DNA from: a virus
Length of the DNA: 64,000 nucleotides
Strand: one strand, 5' to 3'
Virus record (IMG/VR): IMGVR_UViG_3300035180_001452
Span: 32,001 to 96,000 of that record
The first letter of the stretch is position 1. Every line of letters starts with the position of its first letter. Shown here one piece after another: positions 40,262-64,000 of the stretch. The position numbers were made by a program, and so were the translations under genes. The notes beneath the pieces are model-generated. The model was not told the DNA's origin, made no database searches, and saw only the letters and a list, made by a program, of their open reading frames with translations.

Positions 40262-42048
40262 TTCTCTCCTTCCATTAGAACCAGTAAGACTGGTCTCTCG
40301 TTTGAGAGTCTAGCATTAACTCTTATATATCCTGTAGTTTCGTTATTAGATAGAACATCATTGACTATCATATTACATAAAGGTAGGATATACGAATCGT
40401 TGCTAATATTACCAAATGCTTTAGCTCTTAGATCAGAGGCCTTTATAGTTCCTTCTTTTATTCCTGGAATGAGAGAGACTACGGTTTCACACATATTGCC
40501 AAAGGCTTCTATATTACTCGAGTAGTTCTCAACTGACATCTTCTGGGCAGTAGGAGCTCCAGCTTTAGCTAATGGACCGGTAGTTTTATTCGAGGGGGAT
40601 ATAATATTCTTTGTTTGCTTCTTGTCTTTAGTAATACTTTTGGCAGCTACTTTTCCAGAGGACTTAGGTGCAGCTACCATATCTTTAATTTCCCCGTCCT
40701 TAAGATCTATCGGATCCATACCAATCTTAGAAGCTACTAACTGAGGTATCTGTACCTGGTGAACGTAGTAGTCTTTCCAATTGGCCTCATCCGATCTACC
40801 CAGTGCCTGTCTAAGTTCCTCCGAGCTAATAGCATTCATGGTCCACAGGTTTAGAGCATGGGTCTGTTCTTTAATCTGGCGCTCAACTTCGATCTCGTGC
40901 CAGCCAAGAACTACCTGATCCTCTGGGTTATTCCACGGGTCAAACCCACCTTCTATTAACAGCTCATTAAATATGTACATAGTAATGTAGTGGGTTAAAA
41001 GTAATTGGTACATCTTAGCACGATTGTGCATTTGTGTGGTAAGGGCATCTGCGGTACCGGCAGGAGCACCAACGTTCTCCCCCATAACCAGCTCTGATAC
41101 TCCAAGACCTGAGAATACTCTCTGCTTAAAAAGTTTTAGATATCCTTCTGCTCTAATGGCTTGAGATTCAGCTCCAACAACCTGAATCTTATGTCCTGGG
41201 GGAGTTATTATAAAACCATCTGGGGCAGTAGTTTGGAAATTACGTATAGCATCGTCTATATCTTCCTGCCTACCCTCACCCGTCCCGGTAATGTCTGGAA
41301 CCTGTTGATGAATAATAGGATTAAGATGCTTATATATAAGCTTGAGAACATTCTCCTCTGCCTGTCTTAGAGCTCTAATGTCCTCAATAACAGATACTAC
41401 CGGAGGGATTCCCCATATGCCGCCAGCTTCCTTACAGTAGGTAAAGTGTAAAATATCTTCTGGCTTAAATGTTTTTGTAACGTTCCTTACTTTTTGTATC
41501 CAGTAGGCTATATCACCATTTTCATTTAGCTGGGGAGCCATCTGATGTGCGGGTAGATTAAAATACGCTCCTACTGGAGGCTTGCCCTCATACCCTTTTA
41601 GAGATAGCCCTGGAATAGGATCTGGGCTATTAGTTCTTACAGTTACCAAGAAGCAGTTACCATATTTTACAAAGTCTCGTATGGCATTTTCTAGTATAAG
41701 CTCCCAGGGTTCTCCACTAGCAAAGCCCATAATCTTTAATCTTTTTTCTATATAAGCTTTAGGAGCTGGTTGACCTTCTAGCTTCCATCCTTCTTTTATA
41801 ATTATTTCGATATATTTATCGATGCCTTGTCTAATATAGCTGTCTACAAGATAGGCATTTCTTACAGCTTCTATATCAAAAGGAGGAGCTGTACCAACTT
41901 GCTGAGCTCTAAGCCCTGATCCAACTTGATAGTTTAAAACTGGATTGGCTACTCTCTTTATATTAGTAGATTTCTTTTGTACGTTCTTACTACTATTAAG
42001 AGCCTGTATTCCAGTTCTTGTTGGTAGCTTTATGTTAAAAGATGCCAT
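40258..42048 (-). CDS. Portal protein
   Basis: D.YIRQGIDK, RDFVKYGNCF, EDILHF...GIP, RVFSGLGVS; between terminase and protease. Confidence 0.88.
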   Translation of the reverse strand: MASFNIKLPTRTGIQALNSSKNVQKKSTNIKRVANPVLNYQVGSGLRAQQVGTAPPFDIEAVRNAYLVDSYIRQGIDKYIEIIIKEGWKLEGQPAPKAYIEKRLKIMGFASGEPWELILENAIRDFVKYGNCFLVTVRTNSPDPIPGLSLKGYEGKPPVGAYFNLPAHQMAPQLNENGDIAYWIQKVRNVTKTFKPEDILHFTYCKEAGGIWGIPPVVSVIEDIRALRQAEENVLKLIYKHLNPIIHQQVPDITGTGEGRQEDIDDAIRNFQTTAPDGFIITPPGHKIQVVGAESQAIRAEGYLKLFKQRVFSGLGVSELVMGENVGAPAGTADALTTQMHNRAKMYQLLLTHYITMYIFNELLIEGGFDPWNNPEDQVVLGWHEIEVERQIKEQTHALNLWTMNAISSEELRQALGRSDEANWKDYYVHQVQIPQLVASKIGMDPIDLKDGEIKDMVAAPKSSGKVAAKSITKDKKQTKNIISPSNKTTGPLAKAGAPTAQKMSVENYSSNIEAFGNMCETVVSLIPGIKEGTIKASDLRAKAFGNISNDSYILPLCNMIVNDVLSNNETTGYIRVNARLSNERPVLLVLMEGEK

Positions 42049-50722: not shown

Positions 50723-51466
50723 TTATTTTACAGTAGGAACTCCACCACTATCTTTAATACAAACACCTGTAGTTATAATTCCTTGAGTATTATTAACAGT
50801 TCCACCTGTAGTTGTAGCAGCTGTAGCCGTATCTACACTAGATGCGGTAGCCGCATCTATAGCGGTATTGGGTGTTTCTATAGTAATCAGACTCTTAATA
50901 TATTCTTGAGCGCATGATAGAGAGCACAGAACCCTTCTCTTCCTCTTATACCCAATAGTTACAGCTTCTTCTATCTTCTTACCACACTGCGCGCACGTGA
51001 TACCAGCAGCTATATCCTTCGCGAGCTTAGCTGACTTTACTTCATCAATCAGTTTAGTACAGCTCCACTTATTATCATGAGCCTTCTTAAGCCATGTTAT
51101 TGGATCTTCTACACTAGCACAAATTCTGTAGTGAGTCCATGTTACCGGTAGATGTCTGATAGCCTCATCCTCAAATGTCTTGGCAACCCATCTATACTGA
51201 AGGAATGTACTTCTCGCTTCTCCAGTCTTAGTAAGGAACTGATCTATGATATCTGACTTACCCTTCTCTTCCTTTTCTTTATTATGTAGATCGGTTATTA
51301 AAGAAGCAATGTCACCTCTAAGCCAGTTATCTTCTACCTCAGCTTTTAGAATAGCAGAATACTGGTTGACATACTCTTCAAGTTCCATTATGCTTCCTTT
51401 CTTGTTTATACTATCCACAGACTCAGTATTTATTCTAAATATAGTGTGTATATAAGATGCGTCCAT
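50723..51466 (-). CDS. LmbU-like HTH DNA-binding protein with C-terminal zinc ribbon
   Basis: NWLRGD, TFLQYRWVAKTF, TWTHYR, WLKKAHDNKWS; CAQC...CSLSC. Alternative start MELEE at 51388. Confidence 0.55.
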   Translation of the reverse strand: MDASYIHTIFRINTESVDSINKKGSIMELEEYVNQYSAILKAEVEDNWLRGDIASLITDLHNKEKEEKGKSDIIDQFLTKTGEARSTFLQYRWVAKTFEDEAIRHLPVTWTHYRICASVEDPITWLKKAHDNKWSCTKLIDEVKSAKLAKDIAAGITCAQCGKKIEEAVTIGYKRKRRVLCSLSCAQEYIKSLITIETPNTAIDAATASSVDTATAATTTGGTVNNTQGIITTGVCIKDSGGVPTVK

Positions 51467-51495
51467 TTGAACTTCCTTATACTTCCATATTTATC

Positions 51496-52122
51496 CTAAA
51501 TACGGGACACTTCTATCTTATTATGGCACAAACTACGTATGTCCCACAAGGCTGATTTAGGAGTCACCCAGCATATGTCTCTTCGGAGTTTAATCCCCGG
51601 TACACTCTCAGCAGCTTCATAATGTTTATTATTGATACTACCTAGTTTTAAGAATTCCTTTACAGGTAACCATCCAAGGAATTTTATGTCTTGGAATGTG
51701 TACCCTTGAATTATTACCGGGTGAGTTTCTGATGGCGATGGGGTCGCATTCATACTAGGTACGGTGGTCTTACAGACTGTAGGTATTACCTGTACAGCTA
51801 CAACTACATCAGAGCTACTAGCATTATCTAAACAATCCTTAGGTATCCAAATGGATTTAGGTAGCGCTACTGATTTAACTATAAGTTTTCTACCGTCAGG
51901 TAGAACCCCGTCCGGTTTAGACCTATCTCCTCTCTTCCCATACAAGTTCCAATCCATAGTAGCGTTTAAATACTTTTGGCAAGCATACTCTGCATAAACC
52001 CCCATTACATGCTTTATTAAAGGTGGCCATCCTCTAGATATGGTCTGGTTAGTTTTTGGTTTATTCCTTTTAATCGCCATATCTACACAGAATTTAATAT
52101 CTTCTTCTGTAAACTCAATCAT
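51496..52122 (-). CDS. PD-(D/E)XK nuclease-fold protein
   Basis: GVYAEYAC...PDGVL.DG...IVKS. Confidence 0.45.
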   Translation of the reverse strand: MIEFTEEDIKFCVDMAIKRNKPKTNQTISRGWPPLIKHVMGVYAEYACQKYLNATMDWNLYGKRGDRSKPDGVLPDGRKLIVKSVALPKSIWIPKDCLDNASSSDVVVAVQVIPTVCKTTVPSMNATPSPSETHPVIIQGYTFQDIKFLGWLPVKEFLKLGSINNKHYEAAESVPGIKLRRDICWVTPKSALWDIRSLCHNKIEVSRI

Positions 52123-52288
52123 TAATATATCCTTGTTTATTACACGGACTAGGTCTTACTAAACTCTACATTATTATGGCACACTCAGATTATCTTGTAT
52201 AGCAGGGTTTAGCATAAATACGGACATAGTTTATCAGGCCAGAAACCAATCCTGCCTCTAGGTACTATATTACCTAGATGATCTAGGG

Positions 52289-52329
52289 GGTGTGTCTCAA
52301 ATTTACCCACGGTAAGTTTGAGATGTGCC
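52289..52329 (+). promoter_or_regulatory. 19-bp leader hairpin at start of the plus-strand array
   Basis: GGTGTGTCTCAAATTTACC-CAC-GGTAAGTTTGAGATGTGCC, fully paired only if five G-U pairs are allowed. Confidence 0.7.
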
Positions 52330-52377
52330 AGCGAGTGCTCTGGGGACATGAGCCCCTGCACTCAGAAAGGTAAGAGA

Positions 52378-52725
52378 ATGTCCAAGGTTAAGGAGTGGTT
52401 GGAGAAGCTTGCGGGGCTTTTGGCCCCAAAGGCGAGGATCGTGGAGAGCACGGCTACCGGTGACGATCAGACCGGCATCGTCACTGTCGCCCTTATCCAG
52501 GGCGATGCGCGCATCGAGATGGCGGTCAGCTATGACCGCCAGAATTTCCGGGTTGGCTTCTCCGTCAAGAAGGCGGAGGGCTACCCGGTCTCTTCTGGAA
52601 GCGTTACCTTCGAGAACAACTGGTACGAGGTTCATCTCGAGAATATTCTCGAGATGAAGTTCAAAAGTGCATCGATGATCCCGTGGGGGATCATCGGGGC
52701 TGAGATCGAGAAGGCTATCAGGTAG
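52378..52725 (+). CDS. Cassette protein, family 1
   Basis: ATG after repeat B and SD; C-terminal SMIPWGIIGAEIEKAIR. Confidence 0.8.
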   Translation: MSKVKEWLEKLAGLLAPKARIVESTATGDDQTGIVTVALIQGDARIEMAVSYDRQNFRVGFSVKKAEGYPVSSGSVTFENNWYEVHLENILEMKFKSASMIPWGIIGAEIEKAIR

Positions 52726-52820
52726 CCTTCTCGATCACCAAGGAGGAGGGGCTAACGCCCCTCCTTCTTGGGCTGAGTGCTTAGGGGACATGAGCCCCTG
52801 CACTCGGAAAGGAAAAGGAA

Positions 52821-53186
52821 ATGGAGTTGAAGATTGAGAAGTTTCTGCGCCTGGTGACGGGGCTTCTCCTGCCCCCCGACACGGTCTGTGTCGAGGAGAC
52901 CGTGCTCGGTACTGACGAGTCGGGCATCGTGGGGTACATGTTCCAGATTGGCGAGGTCAACCTGGACGTTGCACTCACGAACAACCGGGACGAGTGGACG
53001 TTCACCCTTGATACTATCAAGGGAGGTCGGAAGATCCTGATGGTCACCGTCTTGTACCAGCACGCGTGGTACAGCATGTCTATCCGGGCCAAGGACGTGG
53101 AGACGACCCGGAAGTTCCGGGATGCCTCGAGCATTCCCTGGGACGAGGTCGGGAAGGAGATCGGCAAGGCCCTCTCTGACATCTAG
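52821..53186 (+). CDS. Cassette protein, family 1
   Basis: RKFRDASSIPWDEVGKEIGKAL; paralog of 55329. Confidence 0.82.
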   Translation: MELKIEKFLRLVTGLLLPPDTVCVEETVLGTDESGIVGYMFQIGEVNLDVALTNNRDEWTFTLDTIKGGRKILMVTVLYQHAWYSMSIRAKDVETTRKFRDASSIPWDEVGKEIGKALSDI

Positions 53187-53279
53187 AGAGGGCCTGGGCC
53201 TAAGGAGGAGGGGCTAACGCCCCTCCTTCTTGGGCTGAGCCAGAAGAATGTACCTCTGGCTTGGGAGGAGGTGAATAAA

Positions 53280-53417
53280 ATGGTGGGCCTCGTTGTGGTG
53301 GTAGTAGTTGTGGCGGGCCTGGTTAAGCTCCTCGAGTCGGTTCGTGAGGAGCAAAACCGTGCCCTCACCTTCTCCTTTATGGAGATCATGAAGGAGGAGA
53401 AGGAGGAGGAGAAGTAA
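53280..53417 (+). CDS. 45-aa membrane peptide (not in ORF track)
   Basis: SD GGAGGTGA; MVGLVVVVVVVAGLVKLL...MKEEKEEEK. Confidence 0.75.
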   Translation: MVGLVVVVVVVAGLVKLLESVREEQNRALTFSFMEIMKEEKEEEK

Positions 53418-53514
53418 TTCTCCTCCTCCAGCCTAAGGAGGAGGGGCTAACGCCCCTCCTTCTTGGGCTGAGTGTTTAGAGGACATGAGCCTCTGCACTC
53501 AGAAAGGTAGGAAG

Positions 53515-53982
53515 ATGAAGCCTAGCAAGAAGATCCTTGCTGGGTTCCAGGTCCTCTTTGGATCTGGGATCCAGCAGGGGGTGACCCCAGAAGTTTGGGT
53601 CACTACCAGCAAGCGGACTTTTAAGATGGTCCGCTGTGACATCGGAACCCCCGTTGTGGGGGTCATCACCCGCAGCGGCTGGCAGGTTGCCGCTATCCAG
53701 TCCGAGGAGAAGTATGTCTGGCTCGCTCCTGGCGAGAGCGAGCCAAGGATCGGGTCTCTCGTCAAGCTCCTTCAGGAGTTCTTGAAGGATAAGGGTGATG
53801 GCGTGTTCGACATCATCCTTGCCTTCAAGAAGGAGGTCGAGGAGACCAAGGCTAGCAAGAAGGATGATGAGACCTTTATCGACCTGCTTTATAAGCAGGC
53901 CGAGATGGTCTCCTCAACCATCTCGAGCACGTACTCCAGCGTGGTGGAGTACGTTACCAACATCCCCAAGATTTTCTCGTAG
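53515..53982 (+). CDS. Cassette protein, family 2
   Basis: LAGFQVLFG...GW...VWLAP.ESEP; paralog of 56946 and 58831. Confidence 0.82.
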   Translation: MKPSKKILAGFQVLFGSGIQQGVTPEVWVTTSKRTFKMVRCDIGTPVVGVITRSGWQVAAIQSEEKYVWLAPGESEPRIGSLVKLLQEFLKDKGDGVFDIILAFKKEVEETKASKKDDETFIDLLYKQAEMVSSTISSTYSSVVEYVTNIPKIFS

Positions 53983-54067
53983 GGGATGTTGGTAGCCTGA
54001 GGAGGAGGGGCTAACGCCCCTCCTTCTTAGGCTGAGTGTTTAGAGGACACGAGCCTCTGCACTCAGA

Positions 54068-54205
54068 AAGGCAGTGCAATGACTTGACTGCCTTGGATCG
54101 CTGATCGCTAGGCTAGTTAATGCTTTAGGGGCAGTATTAACTAGCTAGAGTGCAGCCTTGGTATTAAAGTGTGGCTGCAATAGGGCTAACGCCCTTCCTT
54201 TTTAT
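54068..54205 (+). ncRNA. Element C copy 1: ~140-nt structured non-coding unit (ncRNA or promoter module)
   Basis: Stems AAGGCAGT/ACTGCCTT, CTAGTTAATGCT/AGTATTAACTAG, TGCAGCC/GGCTGCA and AGGGC-TAAC-GCCCT, then TCCTTTTT. Confidence 0.55.
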
Positions 54206-54255
54206 GCTGAGTGCTTAGAGGACATGAGCCTCTGCACTCAGAAAGGAAGAAGAAG

Positions 54256-54666
54256 ATGAAGTTGTTGATCCGGCTGTTCACGATGTATCTTGACTTCCTC
54301 CTTAAGAATTCAATGGAGGTAGTTAAGATGGAGGTAGTGGGCGGTAGCTTTGACATCGATTCCGTTCAGGATGGTGTCAGGCTCTCTGTTTCTGCAAAGC
54401 TTACCCAGGAAGGTATGCTTTTGCAGTATGTGTTGGGTTTTAAGGAAAGATACCTAGTAACGACACGTTTGGCAGGTAATAGTGGATATGGACATAAGTC
54501 AATGGTGGCAAGGAAGCCACATGAGAAGAGAAAGATCCGTCTGGAGAGTCGGCTCCTCCAGACGGAGGATGAGGTCGTTCGGTTCCTCCAGCCAGGGGGA
54601 ACCGATGAGGTTTCCGTTGAGGATGCTATGAAGATTCATAGCATCCTTATCTGGCTGGATGAGTAG
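54256..54666 (+). CDS. Cassette protein, family 3
   Basis: MKLLIRLF...LQTEDEVVRFLQP; paralog of 56422. Confidence 0.82.
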   Translation: MKLLIRLFTMYLDFLLKNSMEVVKMEVVGGSFDIDSVQDGVRLSVSAKLTQEGMLLQYVLGFKERYLVTTRLAGNSGYGHKSMVARKPHEKRKIRLESRLLQTEDEVVRFLQPGGTDEVSVEDAMKIHSILIWLDE

Positions 54667-54763
54667 TTTCGACCAGCCAGCTTGAGAGGGAGGGGCTAAC
54701 GCCCCTCCTTCTTGGGCTGAGCACTCTGGGGACATGAGCCCCTGTGCTTGAAAGGAGACAGCG

Positions 54764-55183
54764 ATGCTATATGCTATCGCTGAGGCGTACCGAAGCATCT
54801 TCGGTGCGCCCGTCCACGAGACAATCGTGGACGGTATCCTCCACCAGGCTTTTCTGGTGGGGGATGGTGTGGTGGAGCTTTCGTTCCACCATACCATGGA
54901 CAAGATGATGATGTCTATGGTCTTGTCCATTGTTCCGGCCTCGGTCGAGGTCGGATATGATGTTATCCTCAAGGACAACATCGTGACTTTCCGTCTTGCC
55001 CTTTCCAAGGGCGAGCTTGACTCTGAGGAAGTTGCGCTTAGCGCGCAGCTTCCTTGTGGGGTGCACCCCATCAAGGTGTTCCTTCCTGGGAAGGAGGGAC
55101 CTGTTCCCTCCTTCCTCAACCTCAGTGAGGAGCAGCACATGCTCCTCAAGGAGTGGACTAAGAAGTTGATGGGGAGCATGTAG
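54764..55183 (+). CDS. Cassette protein, singleton
   Basis: SD AAGGAG after a B variant. Confidence 0.78.
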   Translation: MLYAIAEAYRSIFGAPVHETIVDGILHQAFLVGDGVVELSFHHTMDKMMMSMVLSIVPASVEVGYDVILKDNIVTFRLALSKGELDSEEVALSAQLPCGVHPIKVFLPGKEGPVPSFLNLSEEQHMLLKEWTKKLMGSM

Positions 55184-55328
55184 TGGTTTTGTATTACCGG
55201 GAAATGAGCTCACATCCCGGTAATACAGACGTAGCTAACTACTAGACTAAGGAGGAGGGGCTAACGCCCCTCCTTCTTGGTCTGAGTGCTTAGGGGACAT
55301 GAGCCCCTGCACTTGGAAGGAGAAGGAA

Positions 55329-55649
55329 ATGGAGTTGAATATCGAGCAGATGATGTACAATCTGATTGCGGCCCTGCTTCCCGGAAACATTTCCGGGATC
55401 GATCGGACGCTCCAGATCAATGTCAAGACCATTGATTTGGCGCTCGGAGAGTTCGGTCTCGAGGGGATGCTTACTCTGGAAATCGTTGAGAATGACAACA
55501 AGCTCGTTAAGGTTGTTATTCGATACGAGGAGGGTGAGTACACTCTTGGCATCCGGACCAAGGAGATGCATACGATCCGGAAGTTCCGGGATATCTCGGT
55601 GATCCCCTGGAACACCATCACGGATGAGATCGAGGAGGCTATCAAGTAG
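55329..55649 (+). CDS. Cassette protein, family 1
   Basis: RKFRDISVIPWNTITDEIEEAIK. Confidence 0.82.
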   Translation: MELNIEQMMYNLIAALLPGNISGIDRTLQINVKTIDLALGEFGLEGMLTLEIVENDNKLVKVVIRYEEGEYTLGIRTKEMHTIRKFRDISVIPWNTITDEIEEAIK

Positions 55650-55741
55650 CCTTCTCGACCCCTAAGGAGGAGGGGCTAACGCCCCTCCTTCTTGGGCTGA
55701 GCCAGAAGAATGTATCTCTGGCTGGAGAGGAGGTGAATAAG

Positions 55742-55900
55742 ATGGATGTTCTCGCTGCTCTTCTGTCAGTCGTGGTTTTCGTAGCAGTAATGCTACGAGT
55801 ACTCGGCTGTGCTCAGGAGGAGCATAAGCGGGTGATTACCAGCTCCTTCATCGAGGTTTGCAAGGCGATGAGGGAGGCGGAGGAGGCGGAGGAGAAATAA
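55742..55900 (+). CDS. 52-aa membrane peptide (not in ORF track), paralog of 53280
   Basis: SD GGAGGTGA; MDVLAALLSVVVFVAVML...EAEEK. Confidence 0.75.
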   Translation: MDVLAALLSVVVFVAVMLRVLGCAQEEHKRVITSSFIEVCKAMREAEEAEEK

Positions 55901-55991
55901 TCTCCTCTAGCCTGAGGAGGAGGGGCTAACGCCCCTCCTTCTTGGGCTGAGCCAGAAGAATGTACCTCTGGCTGGAGAGGAGGTGAATAAG

Positions 55992-56147
55992 ATGACCGTC
56001 AAGATTTTCGATGGCTTTAATGCCGTGGTCGATGATGATGGCACCATCATCGGGTTCTATACGGACCCGGGTGTTCTCATCGACCTTTGCCTTGACGAGG
56101 CTAATAATATTATTGGCTTCGTCAAGGCCAAGGAGGAGGAGAAGTAA
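55992..56147 (+). CDS. 51-aa acidic peptide (not in ORF track)
   Basis: SD GGAGGTGA; MTVKIFDGFNAVVDDDG...KAKEEEK. Confidence 0.72.
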   Translation: MTVKIFDGFNAVVDDDGTIIGFYTDPGVLIDLCLDEANNIIGFVKAKEEEK

Positions 56148-56233
56148 TTCTCCTCCTCCAGCCTGAGGAGGAGGGGCTAACGCCCCTCCTTCTTGGGCTG
56201 AGTGTTTAGAGGACACGAGCCTCTGCACTCAGA

Positions 56234-56371
56234 AAGGCAGTGCAATGACTTGACTGCCTTGGATTGCTAGTTGCCAAGCTAGTTAATGCTAAGGGGCTAG
56301 TATTAACTAGCTTGAGTGCAGCCCTAGTACTAACGTGTGGCTGCAATAGGGCTAACGCCCTTCCTTTTTAT
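56234..56371 (+). ncRNA. Element C copy 2
   Basis: Same four stems; outer pair changed to CAAGCTAG/CTAGCTTG. Confidence 0.55.
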
Positions 56372-56421
56372 ACTGAGTGCTTAGAGGACATGAGCCTCTG
56401 CACTCAGAAAGGAAGAAGAAG

Positions 56422-56847
56422 ATGAAGCTGTTGGTCCGGCTGTTCGTGATGTACTTGGATTTTCTCCGCAGCGGCTTCGCGGAGGTTACCAAGCTTGAAG
56501 CTGGTGAGGAGGGCTTCAAGCTCGAGGCGGTGGATGCTTACGGAGGGATTGTTCTTACGACCTCTTTTGAGGTCGTTCCGACAGGGGTTGTCCTTCAGTA
56601 TGTTCTTCTTTACGAATCGCGCAACTATCTCATAACAACGCGATTCGTTGGGAATGACGGATGGTCGTTCAAGTCAATGACGGCAACAAAGTCAAATCCG
56701 TCTGAGACTAGAAAGATCCGTCTAGAGACTCGCACCCTCCAGACGGAGGATGAGGTCGTTCGGTTCCTTCAACCAGAAGGGACCGATGAGGTTTCTGTCG
56801 AGGATGCTATGAAGATTCATAGCATTCTCGCGTGGCTGGTCGAGTAG
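56422..56847 (+). CDS. Cassette protein, family 3
   Basis: Paralog of 54256. Confidence 0.82.
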   Translation: MKLLVRLFVMYLDFLRSGFAEVTKLEAGEEGFKLEAVDAYGGIVLTTSFEVVPTGVVLQYVLLYESRNYLITTRFVGNDGWSFKSMTATKSNPSETRKIRLETRTLQTEDEVVRFLQPEGTDEVSVEDAMKIHSILAWLVE

Positions 56848-56945
56848 TTTCGACCAGCCAGCCTAAGGAGGAGGGGCTAACGCCCCTCCTTCTTGGGCTG
56901 AGTGTTTAGAGGACATGAGCCTCTGCACTCAGAAAGGGGAGGCAT

Positions 56946-57398
56946 ATGACGCCTCGCGAGAAGTACCTCGCGGGGTTCCAGGTCCTCTTTGGACCTGGAA
57001 TTCCACGGGGTGTCACCCCCGAGGTCCGCATTGCCGTTGGTAAGCGGACCAGCACGATGGTGCGATGCACCATCGGGACCCCCATTGTGGGGGTCATCGT
57101 CCGCGAGGGCTGGATGGTCGCAAAGATCCAGCCTGAGGAGAAGTATGTCTGGCTCGCTCCTAATGAGAGCGAGCCAAGCGTTGGTTCTCTCACTCAGCTC
57201 CTTCAGGGGTTCCTGAAGGACAAGGGGTGCGTGTTCGATCTCCTTCTTGAGTTCAAGAAGGAGATCGAGGAGTCCAAGGAGGATGTCACCTTCCTTGACT
57301 TGATGTACAAGCAGCTCGAGATGGTTGGTGATACCATCTCGAGCACGTACTCCACTATGCTGGAGTACGTTACCAACATCCCCAAGATTTTCTCGTAG
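56946..57398 (+). CDS. Cassette protein, family 2
   Basis: Paralog of 53515; SD GGGGAGG. Confidence 0.82.
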   Translation: MTPREKYLAGFQVLFGPGIPRGVTPEVRIAVGKRTSTMVRCTIGTPIVGVIVREGWMVAKIQPEEKYVWLAPNESEPSVGSLTQLLQGFLKDKGCVFDLLLEFKKEIEESKEDVTFLDLMYKQLEMVGDTISSTYSTMLEYVTNIPKIFS

Positions 57399-57524
57399 GG
57401 GATGTTGGTAGCCTGAGGAGGAGGGGCTAACGCCCCTCCTTCTTGGGCTGAGGAGATATTAGTATCTCCTCTTATTACTTTGGTATTACCGGGAATGTGA
57501 GACACTCTCCGGTAATAAGAAAGG

Positions 57525-57660
57525 AGTGGTAGAATGACTTGACTACCTAGTGACATCCGTAGCTAGGCTAGTTAATGCTAGGGGGCTAGTATTAACTAGC
57601 CAGAATGCAGCCCTAGTATTAACGTGTGGCTGCAATAGGGCTAACGCCCTTCCTTTTTAT
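57525..57660 (+). ncRNA. Element C copy 3 (first stem diverged)
   Basis: ATGACTTGACT...CTAGTTAATGCTA/TAGTATTAACTAG...GTGTGGCTGCAATAGGGCTAACGCCCTTCCTTTTT. Confidence 0.5.
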
Positions 57661-57710
57661 ACTGAGTGTTTAGAGGACATGAGCCTCTGCACTCAGAAAG
57701 GCAGGAGAAG

Positions 57711-58079
57711 ATGAAGTTTGACGTTGTGGAAATGCTGGCATGGTTTGCCAGCATGTTGGGCGTATCCGCTGATACGTCCAACATCGAGACCGGGATCTCT
57801 TCTCGGTCTAAGTATGCCTCCATCGATAAGACTATCGATGGGATTGCCTTCTCAATGAAGGCATCAGTGGCTCTGGACGGAGAGTGGTGTATTCTCGGCA
57901 TGGTGGCCGAGAACAAGGAGGGTAGCTGTGCTACCCTCTCGGTCTGTGTCGACCGTGACGTTACGGTCGGGATGGAGGATGGCAATGGTGTTTACACCGT
58001 TGCCATCTACGAGTCGGCTGCTGATGTTCCGTGGGAGGATATCAGCGACAAGGCTAACAAGGTCATCTCTAGCCTGTAG
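57711..58079 (+). CDS. Cassette protein, family 1-related
   Basis: MKFDVVEMLAWFA...ADVPWEDISDKANKVI. Confidence 0.8.
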   Translation: MKFDVVEMLAWFASMLGVSADTSNIETGISSRSKYASIDKTIDGIAFSMKASVALDGEWCILGMVAENKEGSCATLSVCVDRDVTVGMEDGNGVYTVAIYESAADVPWEDISDKANKVISSL

Positions 58080-58176
58080 AGGTGGCTTTGGCCTGAGGAG
58101 GAGGGGCTAACGCCCCTCCTTCTTAGGCTGAGTGTTTAGAGGACATGAGCCTCTGCACTCAGAAAGGCAGGAGAAG

Positions 58177-58560
58177 ATGATGTTTGATGTTGTGGAGATG
58201 CTGGCATGGTTTGCTGGCATTCTCCTGCCTGACGCGTACTACCGCGCGTCAGGCGTGGCAACCGGTAAGTCTGATGATTCTTGCTACGCTGAGACTGGTT
58301 ATCTCAGCAGCAAGAATAGCGGACTTGCGATCGGTGTGAAGTGCACCTCCTCGTTCGACAATAGCTGGTGGATTCTCGGCTTGGTAGCCGAGAATCTGGA
58401 TGGGGAGTTCTTCACGCTGTCCCTGTCATTTGACAGGGGGACTGTCACGTACTCGGTGGAGGATAAGGGGCTTTATTCCTCCTATGAGTATGACAACATC
58501 ACTGATGTTCAGTGGGATGTTGTCATTAATGAGACCATTAAGGCCCTCTCTAGGATGTAG
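58177..58560 (+). CDS. Cassette protein, family 1-related
   Basis: MMFDVVEMLAWFA...TDVQWDVVINETIKAL; tandem paralog of 57711. Confidence 0.8.
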   Translation: MMFDVVEMLAWFAGILLPDAYYRASGVATGKSDDSCYAETGYLSSKNSGLAIGVKCTSSFDNSWWILGLVAENLDGEFFTLSLSFDRGTVTYSVEDKGLYSSYEYDNITDVQWDVVINETIKALSRM

Positions 58561-58644
58561 AGAGGGCCTGAGCCTGAGGAGGAGGGGCTAACGCCCCTCC
58601 TTCTTGGGCTGAGTGTTTAGAGGACATGAGCCTCTGCACTCAAG

Positions 58645-58782
58645 GAGGCAGTGCAATGACTTGACTGCCTTGGATTGCTAGTTGTTAAGCTAGTTAATAC
58701 TTTAGGGGCAGTATTAACTAGCTAGAATGCGGTTCTAGTGTTAAAGTGTGGCTGCAATAGGGCTAACGCCCTTCCTTTTTAT
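58645..58782 (+). ncRNA. Element C copy 4
   Basis: Same architecture; third stem TGCGGTT/GGCTGCA retained through G-U pairs. Confidence 0.5.
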
Positions 58783-58830
58783 ACTGAGCATTCTGGGGAC
58801 ATGAGCCCCTGTGCTTGAAAGGGGAGGCAT

Positions 58831-59223
58831 ATGACGCCTCGCGAGAAGTATCTTGCGGGATTCTGGGCGTTGTTTGAGCCCGTAATTCCCGCAGCCCTCC
58901 GGACGGTAGTCCGGAGGACCGTCCGGCTTAGTAAAAGCCGTCAAACGTTTGAGACTGCTCTCGTAGTAGTCTCAATCGAAGTCGGTGGGCGAACCCTTAG
59001 GATGGTTCGACAGCCGATCAAGGACTCCCAAACGGGAGTCCTTGCGAGCAGTGGCTGGAAGATCGCTTGGGTTTTCCAGCCAGATCCAGAGAATGGAACG
59101 TATGTTCCATTTCCCGAGGGCCGGTGCGTTTGGCTGGCCCCGGGATCCGACCAGCCCAAGATCGGGTTGGTCGGGGACCTTCTCCGGGAGGCGTACGGAC
59201 TCCCGGAGAGGATCAACCGGTAG
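58831..59223 (+). CDS. Cassette protein, family 2 (divergent)
   Basis: MTPREKYLAGF...SGWKIA...VWLAPGSDQPKIG. Confidence 0.8.
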   Translation: MTPREKYLAGFWALFEPVIPAALRTVVRRTVRLSKSRQTFETALVVVSIEVGGRTLRMVRQPIKDSQTGVLASSGWKIAWVFQPDPENGTYVPFPEGRCVWLAPGSDQPKIGLVGDLLREAYGLPERINR

Positions 59224-59349
59224 CTTTGTATAAGGAGGAGAAGGCTAGTATTTTCTCCTCCTTATACTACGACTGGTGATTTTTTTACCGGGAGGTGTGT
59301 TCCGTCAGCTTATGCGTAAGTATAGGCTCGGATCACATCTCCCGGTAGA

Positions 59350-59491
59350 AAGGCAAAAGTAAAAATGACCTGACTACCTATTGGTAGCTGGCGCTAGATT
59401 AGTTAATACTTTAGGGGTAGTATTAACTATCTAGTGTATAGCTCTAATATTAAGGTGTGGCTGCAATAGGGCTAACGCCCTTCCTTTTTAT
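59350..59491 (+). ncRNA. Element C copy 5 (most diverged)
   Basis: CTAGATTAGTTAATACT/AGTATTAACTATCTAG; identical 3' end. Confidence 0.5.
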
Positions 59492-59540
59492 ATTGAGTGC
59501 TTAGAGGACATGAGCCTCTGCACTCAGAAAGGAGATGTAG

Positions 59541-59945
59541 ATGATTGCGGGTGTCTTGGTCGGGCTCATCGAGCAGCTGCTGCTCGGTGACTTCAGCATC
59601 TTAGGGCGGTATGTGCTTGGTAACCCTAAGATGCACGAGTGCTGTCACAAGACATTGGTTGTTGATGGTGCCGCTGTGTTGGTCACCGTTGCCGTGTCCG
59701 GTTTTGGTCACGGTATCGTGACCGTCTCCTCTAGCTCCTCTAGCGGTACCTATGGTGCTCGGTCTGTGGAGGTAGTGGGCATCATGGGACTCCCGGATCA
59801 TACCTGGGCCGTCAACGGGCATACCGTTGATGGTGGGAGGCTGATCTCAGTGGAGGAGGTCGTTGGAAAGGTTGGTGTTGGTGGAAGCTTCGCGTGGAAG
59901 GGCGTATGCAAGGAGGTGGTGGACCTCTACCTTAAGTTGAGGTAG
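59541..59945 (+). CDS. Cassette protein, singleton (Val/Gly-rich)
   Basis: SD AAGGAG after repeat B; ends in a stop-codon hairpin. Confidence 0.75.
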   Translation: MIAGVLVGLIEQLLLGDFSILGRYVLGNPKMHECCHKTLVVDGAAVLVTVAVSGFGHGIVTVSSSSSSGTYGARSVEVVGIMGLPDHTWAVNGHTVDGGRLISVEEVVGKVGVGGSFAWKGVCKEVVDLYLKLR

Positions 59946-60578
59946 AGGTCCAGCCTGAGGAGGAGGGGCTAATGCCCCTCCTTCTTGGGCTGTCTGAGGG
60001 CTAAAAGTTTGTTACTACTCTCTGACAAATGTCTACATGTTTAGGGGCTAACGCCCCTCTTTTTAGTGCTGGGGTATAGTACTATACCCTAGGAGGATGT
60101 TACATGGTACGTCCAGATGGCATCCGATTCGGGGCCTTCGGCCCCTGTTGCTATGCCGGGCATACCATGACGGCAATCTTCTTTACTACAAAGACTACCG
60201 GTAGGGTGCAATCCTGCCTGTACTTTTAGTAATAGCCTATACTCAAGTAAACAGTACCGGGAAGTGTGCACACTCTCCGGTATATCAGTCATAGCTACGC
60301 TATGGTATCAGTAGCAGCTACACTAGAGCTTTAGCCGGTAGGTTTCAGTCGCAGCTAGGCTATGATCTTTTGGTGAAAGTGGCCACCATAGGGCAAAAAG
60401 TGCCACATTTTTGGGCCGAAAATGGACAAAAATGGGCCAAAACATGGATGGGTACTTTTGGGGCTATGGGAGCCACTTATCCAATAGCCTATAGCTACTT
60501 TACCTGGGTAAACAATACTCACCCTGCGGTAAGGGTGTTTACATATAGTGCACAGTTGGTAGACTACCAGAGAGGAGG

Positions 60579-61016
60579 ATGGATATGGTAGTCAGAGTCC
60601 TCTTGGGGAGGACGACAAACCCCAGGAGGGGGCTGGATACTACGGTCAAGTCAGGAAACGGACTTGGCCGTACGTTCGCTCCCTCCTGGGAGCTGGTCCT
60701 GGGATTCAAGAACTACCAGGACCAGCAGGCGGGCAGGGTAGCTCGCTTCCCAGGGTATAATCCTATATCCTGGGAAGAATACTCCCTTTTCTACCGGGAG
60801 ATGTTGAACAGTCTCCCGGTAGACGGTAAGGGGATCCCGTACGCTGTGCGGGATCTTTACAACTTCGGAAAGGAGCAGCCCGGTAACGTGCTGCTTCTAC
60901 GTTGCTACTGCTCGGTAGCAACCCCGTGCTGTCACAACCAGCTAATCATTGATTGGCTGGTTGGGAGGTGGCCGAAGGCCTTCGGCCTCCTCCAGGATAG
61001 CCTCCCCGGTATCTAG
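60579..61016 (+). CDS. DUF488-like protein
   Basis: FAPSWELV...ISWEEY..FY..ML...LLRCYC.....CH; SD GAGGAGG (start possibly 60585). Confidence 0.65.
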   Translation: MDMVVRVLLGRTTNPRRGLDTTVKSGNGLGRTFAPSWELVLGFKNYQDQQAGRVARFPGYNPISWEEYSLFYREMLNSLPVDGKGIPYAVRDLYNFGKEQPGNVLLLRCYCSVATPCCHNQLIIDWLVGRWPKAFGLLQDSLPGI

Positions 61017-61166
61017 TATATCGGGGAGAAAGCCAAGCAGGACGTGGTGCGTTCGATACTACGTCCTGCTTGGCACTACTCAAGTATACCATCGGAATAC
61101 CTTTTGCTCTGATCCTGATGGTGAAACTAGCCTTGCACATGAGAGCGAGGCAGAGAGGAGAGAGAA

Positions 61167-61847
61167 GTGAATAGTATGGATCGGGAAGAGGTGTGGCGTA
61201 CCTGCCCACCGTGGCTAAGAAACGCTGCCCTGGCTATAGCCAGGGGATATGACCACGGATGGTCGCGATCGACAGCCGTTCCGTCAGCTCCTTACTTTTG
61301 GGAGTATGACGACCCATTTCCTTCTCTCAGTGAGATTGAAGAAGGGACACCAGAGGGACCCCTTGGCAAGGGGATCACACAGCCTGATATCTCGTTCGAA
61401 GATGGGCGATACTTTGCCCGACATAGAACGGGAACTGGTAGGGTCTTTATAGAAGTTGCGGTAGACCCTACGAATGATTGTGACCTTTCTTATACGGTCA
61501 TTGTCTCCAGACCCAGTGGAGAAATCGCCTCTGGTACCAAGGTTGGTAATGAGGTATACGTGACTGCAGATCGGGCAGTTTGGGGGACTCGCCATGAGGA
61601 CGCTTGGGAGAAGGCGTGGAAAGCTCTTGGGATTCCTGCTCCCAAGTTCCCCAGCAAGGTTCTTAGGACCATTGAGAAGAACCTTGTTGTAGATGGTAAG
61701 GGACTGAAAGTCGATCCCTTGCGCTGTAGGGTTACGGTACTCCCTACAGCAGTGCTCTCAGTAGAGGACCTTCTAAGCCTTAGGAGGGCTGAGAAGGTCG
61801 AGATAGTTGATATTGTCGGTCAGAGCTATGACCTCACTATCAGCTGA
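61167..61847 (+). CDS. Hypothetical protein, tandem paralog 1
   Basis: Clearly similar to 61897-62568 throughout (APYFWEYDD..PSL.EIEEGTPEGPLGKGIT). Confidence 0.82.
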   Translation: MNSMDREEVWRTCPPWLRNAALAIARGYDHGWSRSTAVPSAPYFWEYDDPFPSLSEIEEGTPEGPLGKGITQPDISFEDGRYFARHRTGTGRVFIEVAVDPTNDCDLSYTVIVSRPSGEIASGTKVGNEVYVTADRAVWGTRHEDAWEKAWKALGIPAPKFPSKVLRTIEKNLVVDGKGLKVDPLRCRVTVLPTAVLSVEDLLSLRRAEKVEIVDIVGQSYDLTIS

Positions 61848-61896
61848 AGTCGTAACAGCCTTGCACATGAGAGCGAGGCAGAGAGGAGAAAACAGC

Positions 61897-62568
61897 ATGA
61901 GCCGGGAAGAGGTGTGGCAATCGATGCCGGTGTCTTTGCGGAATACTGCGCTGGGAATCGCCCGTGCCTATGGGCACGGGTGGGCGTGGTCAACAGTAGT
62001 GCCAGCTGCTCCCTACTTTTGGGAGTACGATGACGTTGTTCCTTCCCTCGAGGAAATCGAGGAAGGAACACCGGAGGGTCCCCTCGGGAAGGGGATCACT
62101 GGGCCAGATATATCGTTCAGGGATGGACGATACTTCGTCTTCCATAAGACTGGGACCGGTAGAGTCACTATCGAGGTCTCAGTGGATCCAGTATCAGATC
62201 CGGGGACAACCTACGAGGTAGTAGTATCCCGCCCCAATGGGGATAGCGCGGTCGGTATTCGGGATGGGAAGAGAACCGAGGATAACGTACGGACGTTCGC
62301 GGATTGGTCCATCTGGGGAATTCGCCACGAGAACGCCTGGAAGAAGGCGTGGGTGGCTCTCGGGATTCCTGCTCCCGAGTTCCCTGGAAAGCTCCTTGAG
62401 AAGGAGCTTGTTGTGAGTGGAAACCTGGAGGGTGATCCTCTGTACTCCAAGGTTAAGATCCTCCCCAAATCGGTTCTTTCTGTGGAGGATCTTTTGCGGC
62501 TCAGAAGGGCTGCATCGGTAGAGATAGTTGATGAGGTAGGGCAGGTCTACCCCCTGATCATCGGGTAG
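61897..62568 (+). CDS. Hypothetical protein, tandem paralog 2
   Basis: ATG behind the same leader and GAGGAG SD. Confidence 0.82.
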   Translation: MSREEVWQSMPVSLRNTALGIARAYGHGWAWSTVVPAAPYFWEYDDVVPSLEEIEEGTPEGPLGKGITGPDISFRDGRYFVFHKTGTGRVTIEVSVDPVSDPGTTYEVVVSRPNGDSAVGIRDGKRTEDNVRTFADWSIWGIRHENAWKKAWVALGIPAPEFPGKLLEKELVVSGNLEGDPLYSKVKILPKSVLSVEDLLRLRRAASVEIVDEVGQVYPLIIG

Positions 62569-62670
62569 AACCGCCACAGAGGAGAGGGAGATCACACCCT
62601 CCCTCTCTTCTGAATACAGGATCTAGGTGTGAACAACACCCCCCGCGCCTAGCGGGGAAAGGAGAGAACA

Positions 62671-63384
62671 GTGGGATTTCTGAAGATCGCTGAGCTGCCC
62701 GAATGGGCAGTATCAGCAGTACGATCCATGGTGGATCGGAGCATTGACCGAAGGGTTTTTGTACTTTCCGGGGATGAGATCCTCGGAAAGGTCGAGGAAG
62801 ACGAATATGCAGTACCAGGCAGTCCGAGTCTGTCTGGTACGATCTCCCTGATGACTGGGGAGGTCTTGGAGTTTAACAACTCCCCGGTGTATCTAGCCAC
62901 GCAACTGGAGCGTGGCTCCCGTGGTATTAATCCTGTCTGCCGGGCAATCGTGCATTGCCCGGTGTCCGAAACCCCTGCGCGGTTTGCTATCGTGCAGGGG
63001 CGCTTTGGAGCGTTCCCCGCTACCATGGGGATACGTTCCAAAAGCGTTGTAGAGTTGATCGAGGCGAAACCCGCCTCGATCCCAAAGCTCGCTCAGGCTC
63101 GAGGTCTTGATGTTAAGGAACTCGAGGAGCGAGTTGCATTCCTCCGCTCCTACGCTGTTAAGAGCGGAGATTTTTGGAACTGGAGAGGCGTCCGCCTCTC
63201 TAACAGTTCCTCTTCTATTCTTGCACAGCTCGGAAATGCTGTGCAGGGAATCTCCATTGTGTCGAGGGATGGGACTGAGTACCCATTCCTCGCCCCGGTC
63301 AACGCCACATCCGTCACCGCCTCCCCGTTCGAGGCGGTTACTCCGCTTGCAGTTTCCGTTACAGTTCCGGAGGTTATCGGATAA
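62671..63384 (+). CDS. Hypothetical protein
   Basis: SD AAGGAG preceded by CCCCGC/GCGGGG hairpin. Confidence 0.75.
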   Translation: MGFLKIAELPEWAVSAVRSMVDRSIDRRVFVLSGDEILGKVEEDEYAVPGSPSLSGTISLMTGEVLEFNNSPVYLATQLERGSRGINPVCRAIVHCPVSETPARFAIVQGRFGAFPATMGIRSKSVVELIEAKPASIPKLAQARGLDVKELEERVAFLRSYAVKSGDFWNWRGVRLSNSSSSILAQLGNAVQGISIVSRDGTEYPFLAPVNATSVTASPFEAVTPLAVSVTVPEVIG

Positions 63385-63412
63385 CCTCCAGTACAGCTAG
63401 AGGGAGGTGCTC

Positions 63413-64000
63413 ATGGATGAGCATCTCCCTCCATTCTCACTACGTTGTACGTTGAAGGAGAATGGGATGAAGGCTGTCTTTGTACAGCAGCCTCGGCTGC
63501 TGGAAAGGGTTGGAAACGTGTTCACCGTGCGGGTGGACACGGATATGACGGGGACCGTTCTCCACCAGGTGTCGCATCCGGAAGAGCAGCCTGTTTTCAG
63601 GCTGCTTGGCAGCCGCATTAAAGTACCGGATCTTCGGGCATTCTACATGCCCGAGCGGACACTTTGGAACGCGAATGGTGTTAGAGGCACTATTCGCGTG
63701 GTAGACTTACCGGAACCGCTTCGCATCATCGATTCGGTGATAGGCGATGCGAAGAATGGTAAGAACTCTGCCTTTAGGGCAGACTCTATGCTCCCGTACA
63801 TCTCTAGGATGTTGCAAGTCGAGGTGTCCCATACCCAGGTAAATGCGCCTGGGATTATGGGCTTCGCGATGGGAGCTGACGGGCAGCTCTCTAGCCGGGA
63901 AGTTGCAATATCCTCCAGAATGGCGGTACGGCTTCTTAGGGTCATTTCCACCCTGCACTGGGACTGGGTGGAATGGCTGGTAAGCCGTACCCCGGAACCT
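63413..64000 (+). CDS. Hypothetical protein (partial, runs off window end)
   Basis: SD GGAGGTG, MDEHLPPFSLRC..., open to the end of the window. Confidence 0.7.
   Translation, partial: MDEHLPPFSLRCTLKENGMKAVFVQQPRLLERVGNVFTVRVDTDMTGTVLHQVSHPEEQPVFRLLGSRIKVPDLRAFYMPERTLWNANGVRGTIRVVDLPEPLRIIDSVIGDAKNGKNSAFRADSMLPYISRMLQVEVSHTQVNAPGIMGFAMGADGQLSSREVAISSRMAVRLLRVISTLHWDWVEWLVSRTPEP

Follow-up and report, generated by a model that had tools for sequence, protein, structure and literature searches.

An array of small ORFan genes separated by three-hairpin junctions in an uncultured phage from microbial mats

The IMG/VR virus record IMGVR_UViG_3300035180_001452 is a single contig of 122,380 bp from an uncultured phage that occurs in microbial-mat metagenomes; it is classed as linear, with a CheckV completeness of ~79%. 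We analyzed a window of 64,000 nucleotides comprising bases 32,001-96,000 of this contig, and describe here an array at positions 52,289-60,066 of the window that consists of 15 small open reading frames (ORFs) of 45-155 aa (denoted g1 to g15) and five non-coding units of 141 nt (C1 to C5), all on the plus strand. Each of the 15 ORFs has an ATG start preceded by a purine-rich Shine-Dalgarno (SD) site, which bears out the count of 15 genes and 5 non-coding units made in an initial annotation of the same DNA. Coordinates are those of the window unless another numbering is given.

The stretches between the genes follow a common order, namely, a hairpin over the stop codon (S), hairpin A, a leader hairpin of type B or D, an unpaired SD site, and the next ATG. 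Minimum free energy folds of all 15 junctions contain S, A and B or D as separate, adjacent hairpins. At the 8 simple junctions, the distance from the stop codon to the next ATG is 91-98 nt; the other 6 junctions are composite, and five of these hold one non-coding unit of constant length. The three-hairpin arrangement that the initial annotation assigned to nearly every junction is thus recovered in the folds, with exceptions: the g14/g15 junction lacks a full A, and the ends of g6 and g14 are atypical.

The array leader (52130-52377) consists of an AT-rich divergent intergenic region followed by a 19-bp hairpin (~52290-52330), the first B hairpin (52325-52369) and an SD site. It is followed by g1 (52378-52725; 115 aa, protein family F1, see below) and junction 1 (52726-52820), which comprises the 3' arm of S, A (stem 52736-52773), B and SD. 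Next come g2 (52821-53186; 121 aa, F1), junction 2 (53187-53279; S, A, a D leader and SD), g3 (53280-53417; 45 aa, F2), with a hydrophobic N-terminus, junction 3 (53418-53514; S, A, B and SD), and g4 (53515-53982; 155 aa, F3). The composite junction 4 (53983-54255) runs from S, A and B into C1 (54065-54205), which ends in a short-stem version of A, denoted A', with a T-run, and then into another B and the SD of g5 (54256-54666; 136 aa, F4). Junction 5 (54667-54763) consists of S, A, a variant B with a compensated lower stem, and SD, and leads to g6 (54764-55183; 139 aa), a singleton with orthologs in two related metagenome fragments (93.5% identical in L012 and 56% in L013). In junction 6 (55184-55328), a hairpin of the form ACCGGGA...TCCCGGT (55196-55221) replaces S ahead of A, B and SD.

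The second half of the array starts with g7 (55329-55649; 106 aa, F1), junction 7 (55650-55741; S, A, D and SD), g8 (55742-55900; 52 aa, F2), junction 8 (55901-55991; S, A, D and SD) and g9 (55992-56147; 51 aa), a singleton in the window of which L012 and L013 contain 66-68% identical copies. Composite junction 9 (56148-56421; S, A, B, C2 at 56231-56371, B and SD) precedes g10 (56422-56847; 141 aa, F4), the product of which is 60% identical to that of g5, and junction 10 (56848-56945; S, A, B and SD) precedes g11 (56946-57398; 150 aa, F3), 69% identical to g4. In composite junction 11 (57399-57710), S and A are followed by a terminator-like hairpin (57450-57471), an ACCGGGA-type hairpin (57488-57513), C3 (57520-57660), B and SD. 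Then come g12 (57711-58079; 122 aa, F1b; L013 ortholog 82% identical), junction 12 (58080-58176; S with 3 G-U pairs, A, B and SD), g13 (58177-58560; 127 aa, F1b), which is missing from L013, and composite junction 13 (58561-58830; S, A, B, C4 at 58642-58782, B and SD). The product of g14 (58831-59223; 130 aa) is a distant F3 member that is 90% identical in fragments L011 and L013. The atypical junction 14 (59224-59540), the one without a full A, contains a long hairpin just after the stop codon, an ACCGGGA-type hairpin (59287-59346), C5 (59351-59491), B and SD, and leads to the singleton g15 (59541-59945; 134 aa). The array end (59946-60066) comprises the S hairpin of g15, the last A (core 59965-59978, with the loop UAAU), a spacer hairpin, and a terminator-like, short-stem hairpin of the A type with a T-run (60043-60058).

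Hairpin A is confined to the array. With up to 2 mismatches, its 14-nt core has 20 matches, all on the plus strand and all within 52748-60057 (7.3 kb), compared with a mean of 0.19 and a maximum of 2 in shuffled sequences; elsewhere in the 122,380-bp contig, zero further copies were found. Of the 31 full copies that we aligned, the window contributed 14 and four metagenome fragments the other 17; 10 copies of the short-stem A' were excluded. In these 31 copies, the stem of A has 17 pairs and contains GGGGC/GCCCC; in the junction folds it measures 17-18 bp, with the loop UAAC. Of the 42 alignment columns, 29 are invariant; 97.5% of the 357 pair cells are paired, 10 pairs never vary, three positions are mostly G-U, and there is 1 compensatory change. 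This near-invariance, which includes the loop, exceeds what pairing alone would need and hints at sequence-specific recognition.

Hairpin B is a two-storey structure with the loop ACAUGAG, whereas D has a 7-bp stem. The B core occurs 15 times and the D core 3 times in the array; allowing 2 mismatches, the D core has 10 more matches elsewhere in the contig, none of them in a matching context. An alignment of 29 B copies (15 from the window and 14 from relatives, with D-type and other leaders excluded) yields 13 pairs, with 95.7% of the cells paired, against 15-49% in slid controls. Three of these pairs are changed on both sides (UA/CG, GC/AU and AU/GC; 21 cells), a level reached by 0 of 500 shuffles, and three further pairs alternate between Watson-Crick and G-U. 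The loop is unchanged in 26 of the 29 copies, and the sequence ACATGAG is kept on three different stems directly upstream of a ribosome-binding site at 17 sites, all located in the GC-rich island described below. The loops of B, D and the first hairpin of the C units all contain AUG.

In contrast to A and the leaders, S is specific to each gene. Its 5' arm is formed by the last 4-5 codons, and the stop codon lies in the loop or in the 3' arm. Stop-codon hairpins with 9 or more contiguous pairs and loops no longer than 8 nt were detected in 9 of the 15 array genes, in 2 of the 6 remaining genes of the GC-rich island, and in 2 of 82 genes outside it (a crude set of genes of at least 100 aa). When the 30 nt after the stop codon were shuffled, 8% of the trials reached 9 pairs. 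With loops of up to 14 nt, at least 9 pairs are formed in 11 of the 15 array genes and at least 7 in 13; g6 and g14 have a different hairpin just past the stop codon in place of the stop-enclosing S. Across 31 cassettes from the window and its relatives, S reaches at least 9 bp in 21, and the stems of this set contain 315 Watson-Crick pairs, 28 G-U pairs and 9 A-C oppositions. A G-U pair on the plus strand corresponds to an A-C opposition on the other strand, so this asymmetry points to plus-strand RNA (or plus-strand single-stranded DNA) rather than to a double-stranded palindrome bound by a protein. Together, the compensatory changes in B and the tolerance of G-U pairs with rare A-C oppositions in all stems identify plus-strand RNA as the folding molecule.

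None of these elements corresponds to a cataloged RNA family: a search of the whole window against Rfam gave 0 matches at the gathering score and just 11 below threshold, mostly to miRNA precursors, that is, generic hairpins. Two other candidate interpretations were rejected. The S hairpins are not palindromic scars of the 'P-nucleotide' type, given that their stems have loops of 3-14 nt and G-U pairs, and the array is not CRISPR-like, the 'spacers' being SD-led genes.

The C units, measured as 141 nt each from a chosen anchor, fold into three hairpins followed by A' and its T-run. At their start lies an SD-led frame of two codons, ATG-ACY-TGA, present in 9 of 9 copies including those of relatives, with ACC in place of ACT in one copy. 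A GC-rich hairpin followed by a U-run, the signature of intrinsic terminators, was found in all 5 A' copies and in the hairpin at 60043-60058, with stems of only 5-6 bp, and in 0 of the 14 full A copies, which lack a U-run. Between 51500 and 64000, 8 sites resembling sigma-70-type promoters were detected, against 8.1 expected from shuffles, and none of them lies in a junction or an A-B/D module. The T-run after A' (54196-54210 and the four other copies) leads into TATGCT, TATACT or TATATT, which resemble a -10 box. Transcription from such a box would begin at the base of B; no accompanying -35 box was observed.

The cassette proteins fall into a few families. F1 consists of the products of g1, g2 and g7 (24-31% identity), with g12 and g13 as distant members (F1b, 40% identical to each other); F2 includes g3 and g8; F3 includes g4 and g11 (69%) along with g14 (31-36%); F4 includes g5 and g10 (60%); and three genes are singletons. 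The leader subtype follows the gene family. In pairs of paralogs, DNA identity is 87-100% in the junctions and 30-60% within the genes, and rises again at the next junction; g5 and g10 form a mosaic, with the entire 3' half 80-97% identical at the DNA level.

Comparison of the cassette proteins with Pfam and PHROGs yielded nothing below an E-value of 0.02. The g11 protein had only 3 outside relatives among 5.8 billion clusters, and a profile of F1 had 7 matches among 1.84 billion representatives, all to similar small proteins except for one weak match in a 1617-aa protein. In these searches, then, the cassette proteins are ORFans, with no relatives outside this phage group. The structure predicted for g2 (predicted local distance difference test score, pLDDT, 90.2) consists of a helix, a seven-strand meander and a helix; Foldseek comparison of this model with PDB and BFVD produced no match at E <= 0.001, and a likeness to bilin reductases was discarded, the best VIA Z of 8.9 being at the background level. 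A comparison of g11 and g10 with the protein atlas provided no useful lead.

A mis-assembly, the explanation that the initial annotation had left standing, can be dismissed. Contigs from four public DNA runs, produced by short-word assembly and unitig-like, were mapped on positions 51,000-64,000. An independent 3,449-nt contig of run X1 matches 51,000-52,373 without differences and crosses the compositional boundary into the first B hairpin. The depth of the unique parts of the array genes is 91-118, compared with 72-86 in the flanks, and this similarity implies that the array genes are single-copy parts of the same genome. The repeats interrupt the run contigs, a normal outcome of short-word assembly, and none of the listed pieces covers the stretch from end to end. 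Among the sequencing runs listed as containing the stretch there is no RNA run, a result that says nothing about expression.

A search of metagenomes with an exact 21-mer of A retrieved four short fragments with the same grammar (L010 to L013) and one unrelated contig (L014, see below). In L010, the array leader is 88.7% identical over 194 nt at the DNA level, and is followed by a gene with 35.5% protein identity to g1 and then by two matchless genes. L011 contains a gene 40% identical to g13, then a C unit, g14 and another C unit. The order in L012 is a novel 77-aa gene, g3-like, g9-like, g6 (93.5%), a 90-aa gene, g8-like, and a C unit, and that in L013 is g9-like, g6-like (56%), a novel 75-aa gene, g9-like, C, g12 (82%), C, g14 (90%) and C. 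Because L013 lacks g13, its g12 module runs straight into a C unit. The novel cassettes in the relatives each have their own S hairpin, and these are unrelated in sequence. The modules of A plus leader are ~95-100% identical between genomes whose orthologous genes are 56-94% identical. The fixed order and content that would have told against a shuffled library is not what these four fragments have.

Variation of the same kind is present within samples. Variant contigs depart from the window 4-9 nt before start codons (52373/4, 52812 and 55325) and rejoin it 10-14 nt after stop codons (53200 and 58567/70) or exactly at a start codon (57711). One variant has a g12/g13-like gene after the first leader, at a depth of 32-42 compared with ~86 for the main form. 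Cassette content varies, both between and within samples, and A plus the leader is the constant part; the proposal of the initial annotation that the repeats serve as recombination points agrees with the location of these differences, between relatives and among same-sample variants, at the modules.

Beyond these fragments, relatives of the array were not detected by megablast against 50,697 phage records, by a search for the B-hairpin pattern in IMG/VR (0 matches) or for the A pattern in GTDB genome contigs (0 matches), and locus searches based on F3 proteins in IMG/VR and metagenomes gave none that could be confirmed. An exact 20-mer of A is present in 8 IMG/VR contigs (L002 to L009), which proved to be unrelated look-alikes with no array: each contains a single 20-nt hairpin with a UAAC loop, terminator-like and located between other genes, with three distinct types of flanks. 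A 66-kb metagenome contig with one A-like match (L014) was dropped as it showed no tblastx similarity to the phage.

The phage, at 122 kb or more, is a myovirus. Virion genes lie on the minus strand to the left of the array and include those for the large terminase (43813-46338), the portal (40258-42048) and the tail sheath (29003-30697). The portal is ~36% identical to those of Moorella phage MTATph1 and of Bacillus phages of the 0305phi8-36 type. The array occupies the first 7.8 kb of a single 14.7-kb block with a G+C content of 51-56%, which extends from ~52,280 to ~66,950 (contig ~98,950; ~7,950 in the numbering of locus L001), with the rest of the contig at 34-45%. The plus strand carries all genes of this GC-rich island, which has a sharp left edge coinciding with the divergent intergenic region. 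Two paralogs in the island (61167-61847 and 61807-62568; 64% identical to each other) share 29% identity (E 2e-30) with an AT-rich gene immediately beyond its border (L001 8041-8730), and by this resemblance, the content of the island belongs to the phage lineage. Each of these two paralogs is preceded by a third type of stem, with the same ACAUGAG loop.

Downstream of the array in the island, two ORFs merit attention. The first, of 522 aa, starts at 63407 on the plus strand (L001 4407-5975) and has 8 relatives with invariant RYPNA and GDxDGD motifs. It had no sequence match in Pfam or PDB, but in a comparison of its predicted structure (pLDDT 59.6, poor overall), all 50 listed Foldseek matches were beta' subunits of RNA polymerases, with E-values from 3.7e-5, including the non-virion enzymes of phages AR9 and phiKZ. 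The next ORF, of 647 aa (L001 5917-7860), likewise had no sequence match in Pfam or PDB. Judging from the structural model, the phage very probably encodes its own RNA polymerase directly downstream of the array.

Elsewhere in the contig, a gene for a RecA-family recombinase was identified at G000:C1:114286-114954 (L015) with an E-value of 1.8e-19, above the Pfam cut-off. In the 122-kb contig, ~79% complete, there was no match to Phage_integrase (PF00589), Resolvase, Y1_Tnp (PF01797) or RVT_1. The absence of integrase and reverse transcriptase genes that the initial annotation reported for the window holds for the contig as a whole, and its suggestion to look elsewhere in the genome for a recombinase or reverse transcriptase is answered in part, with a RecA-family gene and without an integrase, resolvase or reverse transcriptase.

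Several other features of the island were observed. The ~500 bp past the array (60060-60580) lack a convincing ORF but include a series of GGGC(C)AAAA-like repeats as well as several hairpins; a 10-mer at 60210 within this stretch occurs exactly elsewhere only in the array leader (52248), which is too little for a promoter call. A 145-aa ORF follows at 60579-61016, with a match to DUF488-N3a below the cut-off (E 3.4e-4; 21.3 bits compared with a cut-off of 27) and a stop-enclosing hairpin at its end. Inverted repeats of the ACCGGGA...TCCCGGT type occur 6 times in the island, 2 of them inside genes, and once, doubtfully, elsewhere; apart from the three in junctions 6, 11 and 14, they are located at 60256-60281, 60793-60820 and L001 6622-6642. 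In the contig, there are 40 occurrences of the 8-mer TACCGGGA or its complement.

Taking these observations together, we favor the interpretation that the modules punctuate a polycistronic early transcript at the RNA level and double as homologous-recombination points for gene shuffling, and consider it about equally likely to be right or wrong. The array would represent the hypervariable accessory ('ORFan') part of an early plus-strand GC-rich region, and the spacer of 91-98 nt between genes would act first in plus-strand RNA. Within it, S would close the 3' end of each message; A would be a sequence-specific punctuation mark, for which a double-stranded RNA site processed by an endonuclease is the most likely role and an attenuator a less likely one; and B or D would provide a 5' hairpin directly before the unpaired SD site. 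The presence of two hairpins beside A is best understood if A is occupied or lost, for instance through cleavage by an endonuclease specific for double strands or for the sequence, such that S and B are left as end structures. Each gene would become, or behave as, an insulated single-gene message structured, and perhaps protected, at both ends. The short-stem A' with its U-run, at the end of the five C units and of the array, would be a true intrinsic terminator or attenuator.

At the DNA level, the A-B/D module could be a preferred site of homologous recombination because it is a direct repeat of ~80 nt with ~95% identity, and the RecA-family recombinase of the phage would be available for this purpose. 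Genes with their own S could then be deleted, duplicated, replaced or converted at the modules, with newcomers remaining correctly expressed. Recombination between the ~80-nt repeats would explain why g13 was deleted and how the replaced genes, the mosaic paralogs and the variants within populations arose. That the cassettes form a library for anti-defense or host takeover, as the initial annotation proposed, is suggested purely by analogy. Overall, the interpretation offered in that annotation is partly supported. A more specific version, which we put forward tentatively and regard as possible rather than probable, is that of a portable 'expression-and-exchange socket': an endoribonuclease or RNA-binding protein of the phage or host would recognize the invariant A and cut the transcript into single-gene messages capped by S and B, and any gene that acquires an S could be swapped between co-infecting phages by RecA-type recombination. 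If so, the array would be an integrase-free functional equivalent of an integron, feeding a library of host-takeover and counter-defense genes beside the RNA polymerase genes of the phage.

Several points weigh against punctuation by RNA processing and its coupling to gene exchange. RNase III requires about two helical turns of double-stranded RNA, and the A stem, with its 17-18 bp and with S and B abutting it, is at the lower edge of this length; furthermore, the contig (~79% complete) has no match to Ribonuclease_3. Because A hardly varies, its covariation is statistically weak, with the 1 compensatory cell reached by 142 of 500 shuffles, and a sequence bound by a protein, or spread in the recent past, could account for the near-invariance of A in place of structure. 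Given that the island encodes a beta'-like polymerase subunit, promoters of an unrecognized type are conceivable, and one may be hidden in B or the C units. That the leader subtype tracks the gene family implies that part of the pattern is plain tandem duplication of a leader with its gene. Finally, the relatives amount to four short fragments, drawn from two metagenome projects, and to unitig-like contigs; the cassette orders do not come from long molecules.

The most plausible of the rival explanations, unlikely in our estimation, draws on the promoter-early stem-loops (PeSLs) of T4-type phages, modules proposed to shuffle ORFans by homologous recombination (Arbiol et al. 2010, PMC2839356; Comeau et al. 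2014, PMC4122927). Each cassette would be its own transcription unit, with A and S terminating transcription from upstream, a promoter of an unrecognized type in or beside the leader hairpin, and no processing. PeSLs join a stem-loop terminator with a G-run and a C-run, a promoter, an SD site and a start codon within ~100 bp (PMC2839356), and in the array, the terminator-like A' is followed by the -10-like hexamers; moreover, the RNA-polymerase-like subunit encoded in the island makes non-sigma-70 promoters possible. However, sites of the sigma-70 type are not in excess and none falls in a junction, the full A has no U-run and was not scored as a terminator, only ~45 nt separate A from SD, nearly all of them paired as B, and the G-U pairs in B favor RNA or the non-template strand. 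We consider it improbable that the array is an ordinary product of tandem duplication, in which the junctions resemble one another only because they were recently duplicated and subject to gene conversion, with the hairpins as chance leftovers of terminators that have no special role. The distribution of the genes over few paralog families, the association of the leader subtype with these families, and the extension of identity from the junctions into the gene ends would all follow from such a history. It does not account for modules ~95-100% identical across genomes with orthologs at 56-94%, for the grammar, own S included, shared by unrelated novel cassettes, or for pairing in B kept through double changes, and neutral junctions would not have stayed identical for as long as paralogs with 24-40% protein identity have been diverging.

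The remaining two alternatives assign the hairpins a role in DNA. The early promoters of phage N4 are DNA hairpins recognized by a phage RNA polymerase, and B (and D) could function in this manner, with the loop ACATGAG as the recognition element. Although this loop is kept on three different stems directly upstream of the ribosome-binding site at its 17 sites, all in the same island as the beta'-like polymerase gene, the polymerase genes are located downstream on the same strand and could not transcribe the array first unless the enzyme is packaged. In addition, changes compatible with G-U pairing on the plus strand become A-C mismatches on the template strand, and the polymerase resembles multisubunit enzymes rather than the N4 type, so we view this possibility as very improbable. 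If anything, still less probable is an integron-like system in which S and/or A are folded sites, similar to attC, for a dedicated recombinase encoded in the missing part of the genome or by the host. Each cassette does have its own hairpin after or over the stop codon, as is the case for attC sites, cassette content differs between relatives, and the contig is only ~79% complete; yet Phage_integrase, Resolvase, Y1_Tnp and RVT_1 are all without a match in this contig, and the short stems are nearly perfect and lack the extrahelical bases and unpaired center of attC. No GTTRRRY core is present at the boundaries, and the only 7-mer containing GTT, GTTAGCC, which is the reverse complement of the A loop region, fails at one R position; the plus (coding) strand is the better folder; and the mosaic paralogs, in which identity fades gradually from the modules into the genes, resemble products of homologous exchange.

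The fastest-turnover accessory genes of phages are the usual place of counter-defense and host-takeover functions, and the exchange of such genes with expression kept has been described in print mainly for T4-type phages, in the form of PeSLs. In the array, S is the part of the module that every incoming gene must re-invent. If A is a processing site, the module could provide compact, portable insulation for synthetic operons, probably also at high temperature. Because variants coexist in the same samples, the array also lends itself to a simple examination of the part played by intergenic repeats in driving gene flow within natural populations of phages.

Among the known systems with which the array can be compared, repetitive extragenic palindromes and bacterial interspersed mosaic elements (REP/BIME), with their REP-associated tyrosine transposases (RAYT), differ in that the array contig encodes no IS200-like Y1 transposase (PF01797). 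Integron arrays similarly consist of promoterless single-gene cassettes in one orientation, with a folded element at the 3' end of the ORF and variable content. Unlike integrons, the array lies in a contig without an integrase, has no core-site motif and no extrahelical bases, has an extra invariant hairpin and a leader between the cassettes, and folds better on the coding strand.

RNase III processing sites are located between the early genes of phage T7. Like the junctions described here, these sites and those of phage SP82 are intercistronic hairpins in a co-directional block of early genes, where cleavage releases messages of one gene each, still protected by a hairpin at the 3' end, as we propose for the array. 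The T7 and SP82 sites are few per genome, have internal loops, and are not known to be near-identical or to come with a separate stop-codon hairpin or a conserved 5' leader hairpin. Cutting has been demonstrated in those phages, whereas at A it is proposed from sequence. For SP82, the presence of RNase III sites in early mRNA is cited in PMC4838370.

The closest described analog is the PeSL of T4-type phages, and in light of the published description of PeSLs as shuffling modules flanking ORFans (PMC2839356, PMC4122927), the term 'candidate new system' used in the initial annotation was too strong. In both cases, composite modules of ~100 bp are repeated between small ORFans in a hyperplastic, early-expressed region; the module extends from the upstream stop codon to the next SD site and start codon and includes a stem-loop with a G-run and a C-run; insertions, deletions and replacements between related phages fall at the modules; and homologous recombination between modules is the proposed mechanism. 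PeSLs are further characterized by terminator and promoter activity in reporters and by mini-circles. The defining sigma-70-type promoter of PeSLs, with its -35 and -10 boxes, is missing from the array modules, which have three ordered hairpins instead of one, including a gene-specific S that encloses the stop codon. Whereas PeSLs are aligned mainly on their promoter boxes, the A core is identical in nearly all copies, and the array phage is not T4-like, its portal being closest, at ~36%, to those of 0305phi8-36-type and Moorella phages. Because of the missing sigma-70 promoter and the different architecture, the array is not a member of the PeSL class; it appears to be an unusually clean second solution to the same problem in an unrelated, uncultured phage, promoterless, purely RNA-structured and built from three separable parts.

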